Source: a virus. From it: a stretch of 64,000 nt of DNA. Positions 426 to 46,494 of the stretch are shown here, in pieces. Position numbers and translations under genes: made by a program. Under the pieces are notes generated by a model, which had not been told where the DNA came from, ran no database searches, and saw nothing but the letters and a program-made list of their open reading frames with translations. Every line of letters begins with the position of its first letter. Position 1 is the first letter of the stretch. The stretch spans positions 69,289 to 133,288 of IMG/VR virus record IMGVR_UViG_3300029564_000003; one strand, given 5' to 3'.

Positions 426-1217
426 CTACGCGGCGTCACCAGCGACAACGATGGAGAACAGCTCAGCGCCCTCATCGCAGTAGTCCTTGTTAAGCTTCAT
501 CTCGAAAGGATGCTTGCCAGTAGAGGTGAGGGCAAGCTCGATGGACTCGGGGTTAATCTTCGCCTTGGGAATGATAACCTGACCAGAGATGAGCTTGTCG
601 GTGCAAACATCGCGGAAGTACACATAGAGAACGGCAGAGAAAGCCTCGGGGAAGTCCTCAGACATGTTGGCAACACGGACAGCCTCAGAAGACTCATAGG
701 TGTACTCGATTAGCAGCTGACCCTTGAAACCAGTCGGAGGAACAAGCTTGTTCTCGTTAATCTGGAACTCGGTGCCAGAAGGAGCAGAACCAGCCGTGAA
801 GCTACGACCGACATCCTTCTTCACAATCTCGTACACATACTTAATTGCCTCGGCATCTGCGGGCTTATGAGCAAGCGCAATGCCAGCGGCATCGTTATCG
901 CCAAAGGTAAGAACCTCATAGGTATAAGTTAGAATCTTATGGCTCTCATCGGCGACCTTCTTCTTGGAACCGAACTGCGTGGCAGCAAGGTCAAGAGAGA
1001 AGAGGGAGTTGGTCGCGGAGAAGGTGCCAGTCTTGGCACGGTAAATAGTAGTAATGACGGAACCGAGCGCGTCGGTAACGTCCTCGCCCTCAGAAGCGGT
1101 GTTGAGGGAAGGCTCCTCAAGCTGGGTAAGCTGGAACAGCATCTCGCCAGTCTCAAGGTCATGCGCAGTCATGCGACGGACACGGTCGATGACAAGCTCG
1201 TTAGCATTAAAAGCCAT
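426..1217 (-). CDS. putative major tail (tube) protein
   Basis: 263-aa ORF at the distal end of the head-to-tail gene order; compositionally typical of siphovirus tail tube proteins; no diagnostic motif. Confidence 0.35.
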   Translation of the reverse strand: MAFNANELVIDRVRRMTAHDLETGEMLFQLTQLEEPSLNTASEGEDVTDALGSVITTIYRAKTGTFSATNSLFSLDLAATQFGSKKKVADESHKILTYTYEVLTFGDNDAAGIALAHKPADAEAIKYVYEIVKKDVGRSFTAGSAPSGTEFQINENKLVPPTGFKGQLLIEYTYESSEAVRVANMSEDFPEAFSAVLYVYFRDVCTDKLISGQVIIPKAKINPESIELALTSTGKHPFEMKLNKDYCDEGAELFSIVVAGDAA

Positions 1218-1285
1218 AATAATGACCTCCTTGTATAATAAACGTCTATTATATTAATCATATCGAGCCACAAGCAAGACAATCA

Positions 1286-2113
1286 TCAGATATCGCCAGT
1301 CCAGTTTAAGCGGTCGGAATCGACCCCCTTAAGACTTGCGAATCCAGAATAGGCACCTTGCAAAAGCAACTGCGAATCTTGAATCTTGTTCGCTCGTTTG
1401 ATACTATCAAAGAACATACCAACGGGCATGTCCCATATACGCCTATCTCCGCACATACCCGTTTTGACGGAAAGTGCGGAAATCAGCGGTTTGAGGATGC
1501 TCTTATATGGCTTATTGGCGTTCCTCATAGCCTCTTCTCTAGCGTCGTCAATCAAATCCATCTTCGTGATTTCATTGGCTGGCATCTCGTTGTTGCGCTT
1601 GAACCCGTGAATTTGACGCACGGCACCAACCATCCTGATATAGGTTGGCCTATCGATTGTAATATCGTGTTCGACATCATACAGCACAACCTGCTCGGCA
1701 TCATTGTTCATGCACGGTATAAAATCAGCCAAATCGACATTCAGCGTCAACTCCAAAGGATTGACCAGCATAGCATCAAGTTCGTCCTCAGACAATCCAT
1801 CGAGCTGCTCTGCATATTCAGGATTGTCAACAAGCTCCTTATGAATCCTTTTCCTGCTAGAGACGAGCTGGGATATAAATTTCACGAATAGCTCATAATC
1901 GTCTATCTCCGTATAATCTATCCCAGCGTAATCGCAAAGCTGCCACTTTAAATCAGCTCCAACCGCCGTAAGGGTATGTACGGCGCTGAAATATTTGCGC
2001 TCACCGAAATCGGCAATCTGAGCTATCGTAGGCTGCTTCACAACTATATCATCGGTAATAACCATGTCATCACCGCGATACACTTTTAATTCATCAAATT
2101 CACACTCTGACAT
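1286..2113 (-). CDS. hypothetical structural/assembly protein
   Basis: 275-aa acidic ORF in the late operon between connector-region genes and the putative tail tube. Confidence 0.4.
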   Translation of the reverse strand: MSECEFDELKVYRGDDMVITDDIVVKQPTIAQIADFGERKYFSAVHTLTAVGADLKWQLCDYAGIDYTEIDDYELFVKFISQLVSSRKRIHKELVDNPEYAEQLDGLSEDELDAMLVNPLELTLNVDLADFIPCMNNDAEQVVLYDVEHDITIDRPTYIRMVGAVRQIHGFKRNNEMPANEITKMDLIDDAREEAMRNANKPYKSILKPLISALSVKTGMCGDRRIWDMPVGMFFDSIKRANKIQDSQLLLQGAYSGFASLKGVDSDRLNWTGDI

Positions 2114-2138
2114 ACTTCACACCCACCGTATGTTTTTA

Positions 2139-2630
2139 TCACTCAAACTCGCACAGCGAATCGTTCAAGTCGAGACCTTGGAATACGAGCGCCCTGTAAA
2201 GATAATCCTTTTGCGACGAACCCTCGATATTGCTGATTAACTTGAGCTTACCGATTCCGAAATCATCTCGACCGTTAAGCCTTTCGTCTATCAGCCTAGA
2301 CAAATAATCATTCCTGTTCTCAGTGACCTTCGGCACGTTGTCGACATTCATATGTTGCTCATGTGAGCAAATCCATATCTCTATGGTTGGCTGAACGTGA
2401 ATCTTACTGTCGAAGCGGTAGGGTTGAGGTATGTTGACCTGAACCGTGATGAATGTTTTGACATCGTTTATTGTGTTTGGATTCTGATGATAGTTGAAGA
2501 TATGAGTGTTGACGAGCTTCTCGCCCGTCTCGCCAGTAGAACATCCAAGCGCCGCGACAATCTCGGGGTCTTTGATAAACTCCTTGATTATCTTGTTTTT
2601 GGCTTTTCCTATTATAGAACTGTTAGCCAT
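2139..2630 (-). CDS. hypothetical head-tail protein
   Basis: ORF 2139..2672 trimmed to internal Met (MANSSIIGK) so that the start abuts the stop of the upstream gene. Confidence 0.35.
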   Translation of the reverse strand: MANSSIIGKAKNKIIKEFIKDPEIVAALGCSTGETGEKLVNTHIFNYHQNPNTINDVKTFITVQVNIPQPYRFDSKIHVQPTIEIWICSHEQHMNVDNVPKVTENRNDYLSRLIDERLNGRDDFGIGKLKLISNIEGSSQKDYLYRALVFQGLDLNDSLCEFE

Positions 2631-3685
2631 TATAACAACGACTCCACAGATATCACAATAGACGACACACACTGGCTGCGGTCGTCGGAAAGCACGAGCT
2701 TGAAGTCCTCGTCGATATATGCGTCGTCATCAATGCCAATGAGTATGTCGTTATCGACAATCTCGACATCAAGTGCATCCCTGAAGGAAGATATGATATT
2801 CCATCTTGGTACGATATGCGGCAACACGGTGCCGTTCTCATCATAGAACACCGCCGTAAATCGCTTAGCATCTCCACCAGATTTTATCACATCTGAATCG
2901 TGCTCGATTACAGAACGCATCACATCTGATTCAACGATATCATCCTGTTCGCCCAAAGGCTCGAAGTAATCGCAAATACCCAAATCTATACGGTCTGTAT
3001 AATGATTGAACACATTCTCAGTAACCGTTACGCGAACGATTCCTTTTTTTCCGTAGCCATAGCTCGTCGTATCGTTCTGCGTTACGATGAACACGCTCGG
3101 ACTTTCCATATTTTTATCCAAGAATATACGCTTGGGCGTCTTCAACTTTACCGTGTTTTCATCACACGGCAATGTCAACATGTGCTGCGAAGAGCCGATT
3201 GTGAACTGCCTATTCGACTGCTCACCAGAGTTATACTGTGTTGTGTTGATGTCGTAACACGGATACTCCCAAATAACCCCATCGGCATCCTGCCATTTCA
3301 GAATCCAATTGCACATAGTTAACTTTCCCTGCCAATGCACGCCATCAATATCGAACGACTCGGTGCATATATAATGCTCATCGGCATTGGAGTCATATAA
3401 TAGGTCGCCCACCATAACCTGCGTATCATACAGGGTTTGAAATTTCATGGTGACGCCTTGCGCTGCTGAGAAGCTGCGCTTGAAGATTCGTATGGCGATA
3501 CCATCATCGCCGACATAGTCTTCAGCACATCTCTTCCCGTGCCGCCAGAAATAAACACCGGGCGTGAGAGATGCGTCATCGAAGAACGTATCGCCCATGA
3601 GCATCCTACTGTTGTAAATATGCTCTTCTCTGAGTGAGTTTCCGCCCATACGCATCTTTGCGTTGAACTTATCAAGTCCTCTCAC
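2630..3685 (-). CDS. hypothetical virion structural protein
   Basis: 351-aa ORF, co-oriented and tightly packed in the late module. Confidence 0.4.
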   Translation of the reverse strand: MRGLDKFNAKMRMGGNSLREEHIYNSRMLMGDTFFDDASLTPGVYFWRHGKRCAEDYVGDDGIAIRIFKRSFSAAQGVTMKFQTLYDTQVMVGDLLYDSNADEHYICTESFDIDGVHWQGKLTMCNWILKWQDADGVIWEYPCYDINTTQYNSGEQSNRQFTIGSSQHMLTLPCDENTVKLKTPKRIFLDKNMESPSVFIVTQNDTTSYGYGKKGIVRVTVTENVFNHYTDRIDLGICDYFEPLGEQDDIVESDVMRSVIEHDSDVIKSGGDAKRFTAVFYDENGTVLPHIVPRWNIISSFRDALDVEIVDNDILIGIDDDAYIDEDFKLVLSDDRSQCVSSIVISVESLL

Positions 3686-8167: not shown

Positions 8168-9703
8168 TTACATGTCGTTCTTACCAAGGTCTTTTGTTTC
8201 CTCACCTTCATCGGAAAGGGACTCGCCCTTGTCCTCTGCTGTAGGACGACCACCCTCAGACTCCTGAACTGCGGCTGATGCGTTATATGCCGATGTAAGA
8301 GGAACGAGCGTATTCACATAATCGAACACATTCTCGCTCAAGATGTTGTAACCGAACATCTCGGCGGGGGTGACGCCAGAAGCGGCAATCCACTTATCTT
8401 TAGCCAGACCCAATGCGGCATTTTCCTTAAGCTCTTTCATGACAGCAGTCTTGTTGAACACGGTCATGTCGTTGATGTAAAATTTAAATGTCGCCTTCGG
8501 CATATTGAGCTTGCGAAGCTTTATGAATCGATTGACCCATCGCTCGAACTGACGGTATACGCCATACACGATACCAGCGTCATTCTCGACTGAAAGTGTC
8601 ATAGAAGTGGCGGTTCCACCGCTGTTGAACAGCTCCTTGCTTGTTCCGCTCGCATTGTAAATCTCATCGACGGCATCGCCGACGTTATTGCGGGTGTTCG
8701 CAGAATCTTTGAAGCTAATCGCCTCACCCTTTGAGCCGAGGGTATGAATCATACCAATATCCTTCGACATGCTCTCTCTATTGAGGTTTGCAAATACGCT
8801 CAATACGTTAGGGGAGAGAAGAGGGGTGTCGACTTTACTCTCATCAATGGGAACCTCTACCAATATCGCCTTGTAATTGTCGGTTCGAGCAGATTGAAGC
8901 TTAAGTTTCTTATAGACATCCAAATCCAAAATATCGCGCACCAAACTTATGAGGATTGGGAACGGATACGTCCATTGGCTGTTCATCTTGATGCAAATCT
9001 GCTTATCGGCAGGTGGCAGATACCAGTTGGTCTGCGATTTGCCTTCTATGTAATCAACATAAGCATCTTGAATATATGATGGATACGCCTTAATCTCAGT
9101 AGCCTTGATGCTACCTAGGTTGATTCTAAAGTTATAGAGACCGTCTTGAATCTGATACAATTTGCATATATTGTAATCAATCTTCTGGAAGAAGAAATCC
9201 CCCAAATCATTCTCGACTACAAGGCCGCAATACACATCTTGATAGGGGAGGGTGCGCATGATTTTAGAAAACTCATGCTTGATATTCATCGCATCGAGCT
9301 TCATCGCAACCTTGCCATATCGTTCAGCAATCTTGTTGACATTCGGTTTGGCGAATGGGTTAGTTGAAATGCTGATTCCCCAATTAAACAACGCCATATT
9401 TGCATATAACGTATTAAGCCTATTGTAATGCGGGCTGATATGCATTAATATATTCGACGCTTGAACAAGTACGCGCCACATCGCGCTTGGATGCTCTAAC
9501 GCCTTCTCAACATCCTCAAGGCGAATATGTCCTATACAATGCGTCTCGATGATTTGGGAATTCGTTATTACATCTTTAAGCATCTGACGCTTAAATTCCG
9601 AGAAGTCTATCTTGCCTTCTTTAAAATCGTTTTCGAGCTTCTGCTCTGATTGGAGAACCGATACCATATCGGCGTCGTTCCCGAATTCTATGTTATCGGG
9701 CAT
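8168..9703 (-). CDS. putative portal protein
   Basis: ~511 aa, immediately downstream of the terminase large subunit; GGGAGGTG RBS before MPDNIEF start. Confidence 0.45.
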   Translation of the reverse strand: MPDNIEFGNDADMVSVLQSEQKLENDFKEGKIDFSEFKRQMLKDVITNSQIIETHCIGHIRLEDVEKALEHPSAMWRVLVQASNILMHISPHYNRLNTLYANMALFNWGISISTNPFAKPNVNKIAERYGKVAMKLDAMNIKHEFSKIMRTLPYQDVYCGLVVENDLGDFFFQKIDYNICKLYQIQDGLYNFRINLGSIKATEIKAYPSYIQDAYVDYIEGKSQTNWYLPPADKQICIKMNSQWTYPFPILISLVRDILDLDVYKKLKLQSARTDNYKAILVEVPIDESKVDTPLLSPNVLSVFANLNRESMSKDIGMIHTLGSKGEAISFKDSANTRNNVGDAVDEIYNASGTSKELFNSGGTATSMTLSVENDAGIVYGVYRQFERWVNRFIKLRKLNMPKATFKFYINDMTVFNKTAVMKELKENAALGLAKDKWIAASGVTPAEMFGYNILSENVFDYVNTLVPLTSAYNASAAVQESEGGRPTAEDKGESLSDEGEETKDLGKNDM

Positions 9704-9717
9704 AGATTCACCTCCCG

Positions 9718-11292
9718 TCAATACATGGTCGGAGCCTGATTGAGTTGCTTCATCTGCCTTGCATAATCTTCGATGTTGAACTCGTATTTCGGTTTACGTA
9801 GATACTCACGCTCAAGCTGACACTGAACCCAGTAATTGTACGCCAGCGAGCTGTATCGGTCTTTTCGCATACCTGTGCGCTCCTTGATTTTTACATTTGT
9901 ACCCTTGACCTCATATTCAAGTTTTGTCAACTCTGTTCGAAGTAGGGTGGTTTGGATGTATGGCATCCTATATCTAAGTTGCTCTGGTGCTTGCATCTTG
10001 GCAAAGCCCTTGAAGTTCTTGGCCAACACGTCTTCGGCTGCGACCTCATCGATGAGCAGGTTTATCTTGCCAGTCTTGAAGCCGCTGCGTAGCAGGATGC
10101 AGATATCATTGTTGAACGACGCGCTGCCCTTGATAGACCATATGACCTTCGGGGCATCTGAAACCTTGCAACGTGCAGCCATGTCCTTGTCATTGCAACA
10201 CGACAATGCCGAGTAAAGTTCTCCCGTCTCTGGGTCTACAATGTCTTGAACCAGCTTGTCAAAGACTGATAAACCGACGCCAGTACAATCGACGACCAAG
10301 TCGGTACATTTGTATACGTCGAACAACCTTCTGACTATGAGCGCTAAATCATCGGCGTTCAACCCCTCATGGTTTTCCATCCATACGATATTGGCGACAT
10401 AATTACCGCTTCTTGTGGGAGTTGCGCTGTTAATGATAATCGCGCTCGCGTCGTTGTTGTGTTTGCTAGACGCCATAAGAGCAACGTCGACAGACAAAAT
10501 CCTTCGCTCATTTTCTTTAAGCTCTGGAATGGCATATGTCTTGTTCTTCATGACATATGGAGGATACATAGGATTCTTCAATCGTCTCCTGTCAGTGATG
10601 TCATCGAACGAAAAGAACGTGCCATCTTCATCCCCGTAGAACAGCGAATCCATTTCCATATACCACTTGACCTCGTCAAACGTCGTTTCCGATATTTCGT
10701 CTTCAACGGCGTGTATATCAAGCAAGTTCTCCAATATCGAAATCTGATAGGGGAGACTGCATATGAAATATTTCTTTTTATCATCAAGCATCTTGACGGT
10801 GTAGTCCTTGACCTTATCGAAAAGCCAGTGGTCTTTGTAAAACGCAGAACTCATATAGATTTCCTTGTTACGCTCCGTCAAATGCTTGTATTTAGGATTA
10901 TTGAGATACCTTGGCTGGCGCGGAGCGGTCAGGAATTTCTTAAGAACCGTGTTAATCACGTCGAGCTTTACCAGACGACACTCATCGACGATAAGTATGT
11001 TGGCTCTCTTACCTCGCGCGAAATCCGAAGCGGTCGCAGTCTTGATATACGAACCGTTCCTAAACACAATCCTACTGTCATTCTGACCAATCTTGCATTC
11101 AGATATCTCGGCCTTGAGATTCTCAGAACCCCAGCCGTATGATTTCATGAAGATATTTTCTATTTTCTCAAGCACCTCGTTCGCCTGTTTCAGCGTACCA
11201 GATACTACCACGATTTGAGTGTGTGGGTAGAGGATGCACCTGATTGTGGCGAAGAGGGCGGTGAGAAAGGTTTTCAGTATGTTATTACCCAT
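9718..11292 (-). CDS. terL: terminase large subunit, exon 2 (ATPase C-terminal part + nuclease domain)
   Basis: Contains Walker B-like ILIVDECRL and the overall TerL layout; the in-frame stretch opens only ~4 codons upstream of MGNNIL; the N-terminal P-loop part is encoded separately at 12291..12527. Confidence 0.65.
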   Translation of the reverse strand: MGNNILKTFLTALFATIRCILYPHTQIVVVSGTLKQANEVLEKIENIFMKSYGWGSENLKAEISECKIGQNDSRIVFRNGSYIKTATASDFARGKRANILIVDECRLVKLDVINTVLKKFLTAPRQPRYLNNPKYKHLTERNKEIYMSSAFYKDHWLFDKVKDYTVKMLDDKKKYFICSLPYQISILENLLDIHAVEDEISETTFDEVKWYMEMDSLFYGDEDGTFFSFDDITDRRRLKNPMYPPYVMKNKTYAIPELKENERRILSVDVALMASSKHNNDASAIIINSATPTRSGNYVANIVWMENHEGLNADDLALIVRRLFDVYKCTDLVVDCTGVGLSVFDKLVQDIVDPETGELYSALSCCNDKDMAARCKVSDAPKVIWSIKGSASFNNDICILLRSGFKTGKINLLIDEVAAEDVLAKNFKGFAKMQAPEQLRYRMPYIQTTLLRTELTKLEYEVKGTNVKIKERTGMRKDRYSSLAYNYWVQCQLEREYLRKPKYEFNIEDYARQMKQLNQAPTMY

Positions 11293-12290
11293 GAGCTTTT
11301 TATCTCATGCTCTGGGGCTTTCGCCCATTTTCATCGACTTGTCATTTCAAGCCCAGCTTGGCGTACATTTTCGTTCGTTATTGAACGTCGGACACTCTTG
11401 CCAAGATTATATTTATTCACTTGGTACGCTCTACGGTGTCAACCAGCCTTTCGCAATCTGGTTGATTACCTCGGTATTGACATATAATTTTATTACTTAG
11501 CTTTTACCGATTTTATCCGATTTTATCAGGGCAATTTTATTTTATAAATTTCTATTTATATGCAAATCTTTATTGTTATCAACATAATCGAACTTTTCTT
11601 TTTTACGAGACAAACATATACAGTCGTCTGTGTAGATATATTTCTTAAATTTTTCTATATTATCTACACCATAAATATATATGCTACAAGCATTGCTTCT
11701 TTTATCCTTTCTTGGTTCGCCCACTTTAATTCCGTTATTTATCAATATGTCTCTAACAGAAATCAAAAAGTTTTCGTTGCCACAAAAAGAACAAGAATAA
11801 CTGTGCATTCTATATTTTTTGCCTCGTTCACTATGATAATAGTCGCCTTCTGTGTATGAAACGCATCCATCACCATCAAAATATCCACGTATAAAATCTC
11901 TGATATATTGTTCTGGAACAATATCATACGTTGGGAACTCCAATGTTAAACTTTTGCATGGCGTGCATCCGAGATTAATTAAATCTCTACACATCTTCGT
12001 GTAATTAATAACAATTCGATTTGCATTGTATTTACCTGCAATTTTCCTATCCTGTATAGGAACATTGCTTTCAAGCGAGTCTCTGAACTTGATTAGGTGG
12101 TCTATATCTTGACTTTGAAGCGTTATCTCTAACGACATAGACCTCAGTTCTTCGCCTTTATAGTATCTGGTAATACATCCATCTGCATATAAAAACCCAA
12201 GCCAATATGCTTTATCAGATGAATCAATTTTCTTGAAATAATCCTTATTGTAAGTATACTTACTCATTTGTTATTCCAATCGTTCGCGGC
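11293..12290 (-). mobile_element. intron (probably group I) interrupting terL, carrying a LAGLIDADG homing endonuclease gene
   Basis: ~1 kb AT-rich insertion between the two terL coding segments; exon 1 ends ...AARGQGKL then stop, and exon 2 resumes at about 11292; contains a free-standing HEG with its own start codon. Confidence 0.6.
11542..12267 (-). CDS. LAGLIDADG homing endonuclease (double-motif)
   Basis: Two LAGLIDADG motifs: LGFLYADGC and IRGYFDGDGCV; AT-rich codon usage unlike the flanking genes. Confidence 0.8.
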   Translation of the reverse strand: MSKYTYNKDYFKKIDSSDKAYWLGFLYADGCITRYYKGEELRSMSLEITLQSQDIDHLIKFRDSLESNVPIQDRKIAGKYNANRIVINYTKMCRDLINLGCTPCKSLTLEFPTYDIVPEQYIRDFIRGYFDGDGCVSYTEGDYYHSERGKKYRMHSYSCSFCGNENFLISVRDILINNGIKVGEPRKDKRSNACSIYIYGVDNIEKFKKYIYTDDCICLSRKKEKFDYVDNNKDLHINRNL

Positions 12291-12527
12291 TTATAATTTA
12301 CCCTGTCCGCGCGCAGCGATGTAAGTCACATAATAATTGTGCATCATCGCGTACAATAATATCTTCTGAAATAACTTCAATTCGACGTTCAGATAATCCT
12401 TTGCGAACCTGTGCGGATTGCACCTGTAAAAACCAGCCCATGCCGCAATACCGTCCATAATCCGTTTCGACTTTTCGTTTGCGACTTCCTTATCTGACAA
12501 CTTATGCGTGGAATTCATAGACATCAT
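12291..12527 (-). CDS. terL: terminase large subunit, exon 1 (N-terminal P-loop segment)
   Basis: [37 protein letters not shown] = TerL N-terminus ending in the Walker A motif; a stop follows directly. Confidence 0.6.
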
Positions 12528-13588: not shown

Positions 13589-13615
13589 TCACATTCCCCA
13601 TTTCCTTCTTAGCGT

Positions 13616-13654
13616 ATATAAAAAAGGGGAGAGTCTACTGGTAGACCCTCCCCA
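13616..13654 (-). terminator. rho-independent terminator (minus strand)
   Basis: Stem GGGGAG(A)GTCTAC/GTAGAC(C)CTCCCC followed by T-run on minus strand (A-run on plus). Confidence 0.5.
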
Positions 13655-13697
13655 GTCCTGTGCGGACTTTATTATATTAATTCAATTATTAATTCAA

Positions 13698-44650: not shown

Positions 44651-44734
44651 CCGAGGCTGGCGAAATTGGCAGACGCATCGGACTTAAAATCCGACGGTAG
44701 CAATACCATACGAGTTCGACTCTCGTGCTTCGGA
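44651..44734 (+). tRNA. tRNA-Leu (anticodon TAA), class II with long variable arm; no encoded CCA
   Basis: Manual fold: 7-bp acceptor CCGAGGC/GCTTCGG, U8, 3-bp D-stem with 11-nt D-loop, anticodon stem TCGGA/TCCGA, loop CTTAAAA (U33, A37), 15-nt variable arm, T-arm ACGAG-TTCGACT-CTCGT. Confidence 0.6.
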
Positions 44735-44897
44735 CGTGTCACAATTGACACTGTTGTTGGAGTGCGCGAGGTGGGCGCATCGTATAAGTTGACAAGACAG
44801 GCGACTTATAATCGCCAGATGCAGGAGCGTGGCCTGCTGCGCCTACCTCCCGTACTCCAACAATTCGGAAATTTTATTGGCTAAGAAAGGAAACACA

Positions 44898-46414: not shown

Positions 46415-46494
46415 GCGCCTATAGGGTAATGGAGAACCCACCTGTCTTCTAAACAGGAATTTTAATCTCAGTTCGACTCTGAGTAGGCGTACCA
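46415..46494 (+). tRNA. tRNA-Arg (anticodon TCT), CCA encoded, unusually long 9-nt variable loop
   Basis: Manual fold: acceptor GCGCCTA/TAGGCGT (G1-U72), U8, D-arm GGGT-AATGGAGA-ACCC, anticodon arm CCTGT-CTTCTAA-ACAGG, T-arm CTCAG-TTCGACT-CTGAG, discriminator A + CCA. Confidence 0.55.

Follow-up and report, generated by a model that had tools for sequence, protein, structure and literature searches.

A probable mobile group I intron with a LAGLIDADG endonuclease gene between the Walker A codons of a phage terminase gene

How can the gene for the large terminase subunit (terL, with the product TerL) encode a packaging ATPase if its reading frame is broken inside the Walker A motif? This question is raised by a stretch of viral DNA of 64,000 nucleotides (nt), positions 69,289 to 133,288 of the IMG/VR record IMGVR_UViG_3300029564_000003, which we call the window, and in particular by its positions 11,293 to 12,527. 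Here two open reading frames (ORFs) with similarity to different parts of TerL are separated by a third that encodes a LAGLIDADG protein. We consider it highly likely that terL carries a mobile group I intron with a LAGLIDADG homing endonuclease gene, inserted between the codons of the Walker A glycine and lysine (GGU^AAA; the caret marks the point of insertion). The coordinates of all features are compiled in Table 1.

The two coding segments form a single gene once they are joined. Connecting position 12300, the U of GGU, to the AAA at 11274 restores an in-frame TerL of 594 amino acids (aa), which reads ...IAARGQG up to the junction and KTFLTALF... beyond it. The Walker A sequence GQGKT is rebuilt in this way, and no residue is gained or lost in comparison with intron-less homologues. 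A first-pass annotation, made from the sequence alone, had proposed that terL is split within Walker A and that alignment with intron-less terL would define the splice sites; both proposals hold, as the alignment leads without a gap to GGU joined to AAA. The same annotation located the split correctly but took 12291 and about 11292 as the exon ends, where the true ends are 12300 and 11274, and of its exon 1 terminus AARGQGK(L) the part AARGQG stands, whereas K(L) is encoded by the intron. Indeed, the 'K L stop' that ends the first ORF and the 'MGNNIL' that begins the third are intron-encoded read-through and lie outside TerL, and exon 2 opens with the codon of the true Walker A lysine (AAA, 11274..11272). 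The ATG at 11292 sits within the 3' strand of the ribozyme helix P9.1, lacks a ribosome-binding site and is no genuine start. The ATG of exon 1 overlaps the stop codon of the upstream yonG-like gene (ATGA).

Comparisons with tblastn agree with this gene model. The spliced TerL aligns in one piece across the junction with YonF of SPbeta (44.5% identity, residues 20-579), which reads LASRGQGKTWLTSVY at the junction and is free of gaps there, and it likewise aligns in one piece with the intron-less MT836002 (48% identity, residues 6-570). Pfam places the third ORF weakly in terminase ATPase families, and the spliced protein matches TerL families of PHROG (phrog_2, 5.6e-22, and others). The features of a TerL, that is, GQGKT and ILIVDE in one contiguous protein, a nuclease domain and a position in the packaging cluster, are found together after splicing only. 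The gene order is yonG-like, terL, portal, and from these neighbours and the TerL matches we conclude that the window represents an SPbeta-like phage; 25 kb of the window, compared by megablast, had no match among phage records.

Table 1. Coordinates of the features at the terL locus and elsewhere in the window (aa, amino acids; bp, base pairs).
Feature	Position	Strand	Remarks
First ORF	12527..12291	-	78 aa, ends ...AARGQGKL*
terL exon 1	12527..12300	-	76 codons, M...AARGQG; in 56 intron-less relatives aa 76 is followed directly by exon 2 aa 1 (tblastn)
Predicted group I intron	12299..11275	-	1025 nt; starts AAAUUAUAA, ends ...ACAUACUG, terminal G 11275
Putative homing endonuclease gene	12267..11542	-	241 aa, own ATG, in P1 loop (L1); monomeric double-LAGLIDADG
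Ribozyme core	11538..11275	-	264 nt
Internal guide sequence GCCCUG	11532..11527	-	pairs with exon 1 end CAGGGU (12305..12300) as P1, 6 bp, U·G at splice site
P3	11520..11514 / 11394..11388	-	pseudoknot with P7
P4	11510..11505 / 11476..11471	-	
P5 and extension	11501..11480	-	
P6	11470..11468 / 11437..11435	-	
P6a	11465..11458 / 11446..11439	-	
P7	11431..11425 / 11365..11360	-	bulged A 11430, G 11429 - C 11361 pair
P7.1	11424..11420 / 11405..11401	-	CCAAG/CUUGG
P8	11387..11383 / 11376..11372	-	
P9 domain	11356..11312	-	
P9.1	11310..11304 / 11296..11290	-	
Third ORF	11292..9718	-	524 aa; ATPase remainder (ILIVDECRL) and nuclease domain
terL exon 2	11274..9718	-	518 codons and stop; opens AAA ACC UUU (KTF), completes Walker A; then Walker B ILIVDE and nuclease domain
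Portal gene	9721..8168	-	next after terL exon 2
tRNA Leu(TAA)	44651..44735	+	confirmed by Rfam
tRNA Ile(TAT)	44773..44847	+	confirmed by Rfam
tRNA Arg(TCT)	46415..46494	+	

The boundaries of the intron follow from the gap-free protein alignment, from the U at position -1 that pairs with a G of the internal guide sequence (IGS), and from the terminal G; a covariance model of the ribozyme, R1, ends exactly at 11275. They place the 5' splice site after 12300 (GGU) and the 3' splice site after G 11275. Four junctions would yield an identical mRNA because AAA follows both GGU and the last G of the intron, and among these equivalents only the chosen one gives a U at -1 and a G at the 3' end of the intron. 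The predicted ligated mRNA reads ...CGCGGACAGGGU immediately followed by AAAACCUUUCUC and is 1025 nt shorter than the unspliced RNA. The AT-rich DNA of about 1 kb that had been reported between the exons is indeed poor in GC (0.34 in the intron, 0.43 and 0.46 in the exons), a composition that points to a foreign element. An in-frame UAA lies 7 to 9 nt into the intron (12293..12291), 23 bases separate the first ORF from the endonuclease ORF, and 249 non-coding bases precede the third ORF.

The 3' part of the insert contains a ribozyme core whose helices co-vary among relatives. Its IGS is situated seven bases upstream of P3, about 770 nt beyond the 5' splice site, and GCCCUG(U) is kept at the same place in all orthologues that occupy the same site. 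At locus L019 the ORF occupies L5 instead, and the pairing of exon and IGS closes a hairpin of 10 nt; introns at a second site, 6 nt upstream, carry an IGS of GCCGU, GUCUU or GCUCU at the fixed position, each of which fits its own exon. An initial alignment (A1, MAFFT) misaligned the divergent cores of phiR1-37, AR9 and phi127 and was superseded by A2, which comprises 8 related cores, was not fitted to a model and served to build R1, and subsequently by the model-based A3 with 30 distinct sequences from R1 matches. It should be kept in mind that A3 leans towards the proposed structure because it was fitted to R1, whereas A2 was not. On A2, RNAalifold recovered P6, P6a, P7, P7.1, P8, P9 and P9.1, with double-sided changes in 28 of 38 pairs. 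When the P3 pseudoknot, P4 and P5 are added, 96.9% of the cells pair, compared to 29 to 40% with slid partners; 34 of the 54 pairs of this full structure show double changes, and the observed values were matched by none of 500 shuffles. In A3, 96.7% of the cells pair and double changes occur in 41 of 47 pairs. Folded as a single sequence, the core alone has a z of -4.0.

Several details of the core deserve attention. The closing pair of P7 (109/196) co-varies (GC:5, AU:2, CG:1) and is followed by a bulged base and by a G-C pair that is invariant (8/8). A bulged base together with a G-C pair in P7 is the layout of the guanosine site in group I introns, and the arrangement observed here probably functions as the guanosine-binding site. 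All 8 aligned family members end in G, J3/4 is AAA, and both J4/5 and J5/4 are A-rich. In P7.1 all 5 pairs co-vary and the loop UGAAUAAAUAUAAU is conserved; phiR1-37, AR9 and phi127 possess an additional hairpin inside this loop. A P7.1 between P7 and P3' marks subgroup IA (PMC3984707), and on this feature we assign the intron to the phage IA-like type, at the level of subgroup IA.

R1 recognises one site in the window (11525..11275, 194 bits) and has no other match there. Applied to 62 loci, it matched every locus with an insert and none of the intron-less ones, and the predicted 3' splice site coincides with the end of the match or lies 2 to 7 nt beyond it. The best match of R1 in 7.3 kb of T4 (nrdB, nrdA, td) covers the 3' half of the ribozyme in the td intron, where P7, P8, P9 and P9.1 are aligned. 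The Rfam/Infernal check for a group I core that had been suggested at the outset gave a divided answer: RF00028 (Intron_gpI) matched over its full length, and placed P3, P4 and P8 as in the proposed structure, when only a 351-nt core was searched, but with 20.1 bits (E = 0.005) under a gathering threshold of 50.

This low score is one of several observations that weigh against a group I intron in terL. RF00028 returned nothing when 2 kb around the intron was searched, and no group I match was obtained in 16 relatives at Rfam gathering thresholds, in 8 relatives at E <= 1, or in the ORF-less intron of L052 searched alone. R1 has no match in the bnrdE/bnrdF region of SPbeta, whose record annotates introns, and therefore provides no direct link to those introns; the link to T4 td is weak (12.5 bits). 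Furthermore, P10 comprises at most 2 bp, the Shine-Dalgarno sequence of the endonuclease ORF is weak (UGGAA), and the splicing of terL, be it autocatalytic or assisted by proteins, is something that we infer from sequence and predicted structure. With regard to the Rfam results, a match is a detection tool and no defining property of group I introns. A survey of Bastillevirinae used subgroup-specific models, among which those for IA2 and IA3 accounted for 55 of 72 hits (PMC11878797).

The ORF within the insert had been described as free-standing, with two LAGLIDADG motifs and its own start, and our data support this description. It begins with its own ATG in a frame offset by 2 from exon 1, contains the motifs LGFLYADGC and IRGYFDGDGC, and matches LAGLIDADG_3 (9.8e-9) and LAGLIDADG_1 (7e-6) in Pfam, where the C-terminal half is above threshold and the N-terminal half weak (16.5 bits), as well as phrog_4645 'endonuclease' (1.4e-53). 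Among 37 homologues D29 is invariant and D133 nearly so (>= 90%). An AlphaFold model based on these 37 homologues (predicted local distance difference test, pLDDT, 93.6) shows two alpha-beta-beta-alpha-beta-beta-alpha units, and its best full-length matches in the Protein Data Bank (PDB) are I-AniI, enzymes of the I-OnuI type and the bI3 maturase (Foldseek E about 4e-11, template modelling score 0.62 to 0.66); phmmer of the protein against PDB sequences gave nothing meaningful. The family is large, with 7840 proteins at E <= 1e-5, and homologous LAGLIDADG genes of 32 to 43% identity are present in the related introns of cr6_1, MT835539, phiR1-37 and phi127. We predict that the protein is an active endonuclease with a target in intron-less terL, and by analogy it may also have a role as a maturase.

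Presence and absence of the insert among relatives are consistent with mobility. Searched with exon 2, IMG/VR yielded 80 related terL loci of 53 to 81% identity, 79 of which hold both exons. At 56 of these 79, residue 76 of exon 1 stands directly next to residue 1 of exon 2, while the remaining 23 possess an insert in the P-loop of 285 to 293, 390, 508, 1020 to 1032, 1185, 1285 or 1313 to 1334 nt. Nine loci contain an orthologous intron, whose full length is 68 to 72% identical at the nucleotide level and whose endonuclease is 61 to 67% identical in aa; other insert-bearing loci are ORF-less or have different ORFs. A 136-kb contig encodes an endonuclease 98% identical to that of the window and has the same gene layout, and a near-identical relative contig shows the arrangement at the same codon. 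Indirect evidence for homing comes from near-identical alleles with and without the insert: L059, with the insert, and the empty L061 have flanks that are 98.3% and 99.4% identical, and 4 of the 10 upstream differences lie within 16 nt of the junction, and L024 and L021 form another such pair (99.3% and 96.7%). The intron-less target in the L061 and L021 alleles reads ...CGTGGTCAGGGTAAAACATGG...

Some of these loci were noted for other reasons. L060 has a further orthologous copy in which the LAGLIDADG ORF is truncated to 189 aa, compared to 239 aa in the near-identical L059 and L064, as expected for decay within the homing cycle. The closest relatives in IMG/VR, L015 and L016, contain an ORF-less intron of 293 nt (2708..3000) at the same codon boundary; here C·A would replace U·G at the 5' splice site because the exon ends in GGGC and the apparent guide is ACCC. 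The second insertion site, CGC GGT^CAA GGA AAA (RG^QGK), lies 6 nt upstream in the TerL P-loop and is occupied in L017, L030, L052, L072, L076, L080 and L090, just upstream of locus position 3001. In L017, L030, L052 and L090 the guide is altered to fit the exon at this site, and for L072 and L080 the 5' splice site may be mis-assigned.

From these observations the following course of events can be proposed. The terL region would be transcribed as a single RNA, in which the GCCCUG guide would pair with CAGGGU to form P1, with the entire endonuclease ORF looping out of P1. After folding of the core, a free guanosine bound at the P7 site would attack directly behind the U that forms the U·G pair and would then give way to the terminal G 11275, and the exons would be ligated to give an mRNA for the intact 594-aa TerL. 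Unspliced RNA, on the other hand, would give a 78-aa fragment only, because of the UAA so close to the beginning of the intron. The same RNA would also be translated into the 241-aa LAGLIDADG protein, which in co-infected cells would be expected to cleave intron-less terL close to GGT^AAA, and repair of the cut allele would copy the intron in (homing). The endonuclease may also aid the folding of the RNA, as I-AniI and bI3 do.

Other explanations of the broken gene have to be considered. On the one hand, a free-standing homing endonuclease might have split terL with no RNA splicing at all, so that separate products of 78 and 524 aa form an active terminase. Genes of T4-type phages are said to be split in this manner by mob/seg endonucleases, and gene callers do see three separate ORFs at this locus, the last with an ATG at 11292. 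We nevertheless regard this explanation as very improbable: the P-loop is broken between its G and its K, which leaves neither fragment with a Walker A motif, the ATG at 11292 is part of P9.1 and has no ribosome-binding site, and beside the ORF stand about 260 nt of non-coding RNA with 41 of 47 pairs co-varying, which a free-standing endonuclease does not need, while inserts without any ORF (285 to 293 nt) occur at the same site. On the other hand, an insertion could have turned terL into a pseudogene of a decaying prophage, and formally the gene is interrupted. There is little to recommend this interpretation, given that both exons are intact and in phase once joined, that the adjoining packaging genes (yonG-like and portal) are intact as well, and that the insert is retained, with compensatory RNA changes and with its endonuclease ORF intact (61 to 98% aa identity), in many phage genomes of 120 to 160 kb.

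Finally, the insert could belong to another class of element, namely an intein, a group II intron or a translational bypass element, which we hold to be extremely improbable. LAGLIDADG inteins have been reported from TerL genes of some crAss-like phages (PMC7886860). In our case, however, the endonuclease ORF has its own start in another frame and follows the early UAA, and the insert can therefore not be an intein; Pfam, furthermore, finds no Hint domain. The sequence likewise rules out a group II intron, as there is neither a reverse transcriptase nor a group II match in Rfam. A length of 1025 nt is far beyond translational bypassing, of which we know no example that approaches this size. 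The co-varying core and its IGS agree with the initial preference for a group I intron over an intein, and a group I intron is the reading that we retain.

The same ribozyme family is found in other phage genes. When the whole region was compared with phage records by blastn, matches were confined to the final ~220 nt of the insert (about 11495..11278) and occurred in terL of Clostridium phage vB_CpeS-1181, in a helicase gene of the crAss-like phages cr6_1 and cr118_1, in Staphylococcus phages and in the topoisomerase II genes of Yersinia phage phiR1-37 and Bacillus phages AR9/PBS1, which are unrelated phages. At the loci that we inspected, the matched segment is preceded by an endonuclease ORF or by the first gene fragment and followed by the point at which the interrupted gene resumes. 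The coding sequence of the AR9 topoisomerase II is annotated as a join of three pieces, consistent with the two ribozyme copies present there. Two copies per gene region were observed in L077 (1321..1534 and 2768..2989), L014 (201..441 and 1766..1980) and L008 (1364..1624 and 1819..2080), and L077 has a second terL intron near residue 150. In the vB_CpeS-1181 locus (L004, 1040..2212) a member of the family with 172 bits occupies a different position, after ...IIAD, in an unrelated terL, the annotation of which shows two 'terminase large subunit' genes on either side of a hypothetical ORF.

In the crAss-like phages cr118_1 (L009, about 1660..2000) and cr6_1 (L005, about 1200..2216), the ribozyme family lies in helicase-like genes and again between G and K of the P-loop. 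The site in cr118_1 is GISGSG^KSS (GGT^AAA), and the LAGLIDADG gene of cr6_1 is 43% identical to that of the window. P-loop sites of the family hence comprise RG^QGK and GQG^K, 6 nt apart, in SPbeta-like TerL and GSG^KS in the crAss-like helicase-like gene; each follows GGU, and the guide is re-tuned to the local exon in the terL introns, with a tentative 4-bp pairing in cr118_1. It is conceivable, though we consider it rather doubtful, that this ribozyme and LAGLIDADG family has repeatedly colonised P-loop codons of unrelated phage ATPases. If it had, the near-universal GGN-GGU-AAA coding of Walker A would represent a common landing pad for ectopic transposition, by the route of reverse splicing or of relaxed endonuclease specificity.

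Outside the intron, few features call for comment. Rfam, searched with the entire window at gathering thresholds, returned two tRNAs only. A motif resembling the P7.1 loop, TGAATTAATATAAT, occurs with one mismatch at 13671..13684 (minus strand) in the spacer upstream of the yonG-like gene, but at chance level, as 37 of 100 shuffles give >= 2 matches; it resembles the -10 region of a promoter, and R1 detects no ribozyme there. The near-identical relative L095 (ERZ27273514) possesses a 56-aa ORF and a free-standing GIY-YIG gene between its yonJ-like and yonG-like genes (1609..2552), where the window has merely a spacer of 109 nt (13589..13697).

What the intron implies for annotation is straightforward. 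In the window, in many related metagenomic phages and in Mammaliicoccus phage phi127, terL is called as two or three unrelated ORFs and should be one spliced gene. The general group I model of Rfam misses this ribozyme family, and similar phage introns are therefore probably under-called. Production of particles by the phage would depend on the splicing of the message for its packaging ATPase, a step predicted here. The locus also offers a natural system for the homing cycle, with alleles that carry an endonuclease, a degenerate endonuclease, no ORF or no insert, in addition to a second site 6 nt away. Nevertheless, group I introns in TerL genes are already known, the element is an ordinary example of a known selfish kind, and the current understanding of group I introns is unchanged by it.

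Comparison with known systems places the terL intron among well-described relatives. A review lists terminases among the typical targets of group I introns (PMC3984707), the introns term-IVS1 and term-IVS2 interrupt terminase genes in prophages of the Bacillus cereus group, in whose introns in-frame stops occur early and P1 is adjusted to new homing sites (PMC2504315), and for group I introns in terL of Bastillevirinae (e.g. SIOphi) splicing has been demonstrated (PMC11878797). They share with the intron of the window an IA type at a conserved terL site, a loop that often accommodates a homing endonuclease gene, a stop codon among the first 27 nt and an IGS/P1 fitted to the homing site. They differ in that the TerL of the window is YonF-like, as in SPbeta, and is interrupted exactly between G and K of Walker A, and in that its endonuclease is of the LAGLIDADG type, whereas the terminase-intron endonuclease cluster described for Bastillevirinae is HNH/Vsr-like (PMC11878797). 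We found no literature that combines group I intron, large terminase and Walker A, and none on terL introns of SPbeta-like phages.

The terL intron of phi127 (PV389080) is more similar: it has the same GGT^AAA boundary, ribozyme family and place of the ORF, and boundary and ribozyme family are likewise shared by L024, L027, L028, L059, L064 and L085-L087 from IMG/VR (R1 scores, with phi127, of 109 to 172 bits). Its endonuclease is a more distant homologue (34% aa identity), and it differs by a P2 helix, by enlarged P5 and P7.1/P7.2 and by an ORF that extends into the IGS/P2 region; in the phi127 record the locus appears as three separate genes, with no intron annotated. The T4 td intron (I-TevI, subgroup IA2) is another group I intron of a phage, in a gene of the nucleotide-metabolism type and with the same helix order P7, P7.1, P3', P8, P7', P9 and P9.1, but sequence similarity to it is very low. 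Its ORF is located in P6 and codes for a GIY-YIG enzyme. As regards the protein, I-AniI and the bI3 maturase, the best structural matches, are monomeric double-LAGLIDADG enzymes like the one described here and are encoded by group I introns of mitochondria, although their sequence identity to it is about 15%.

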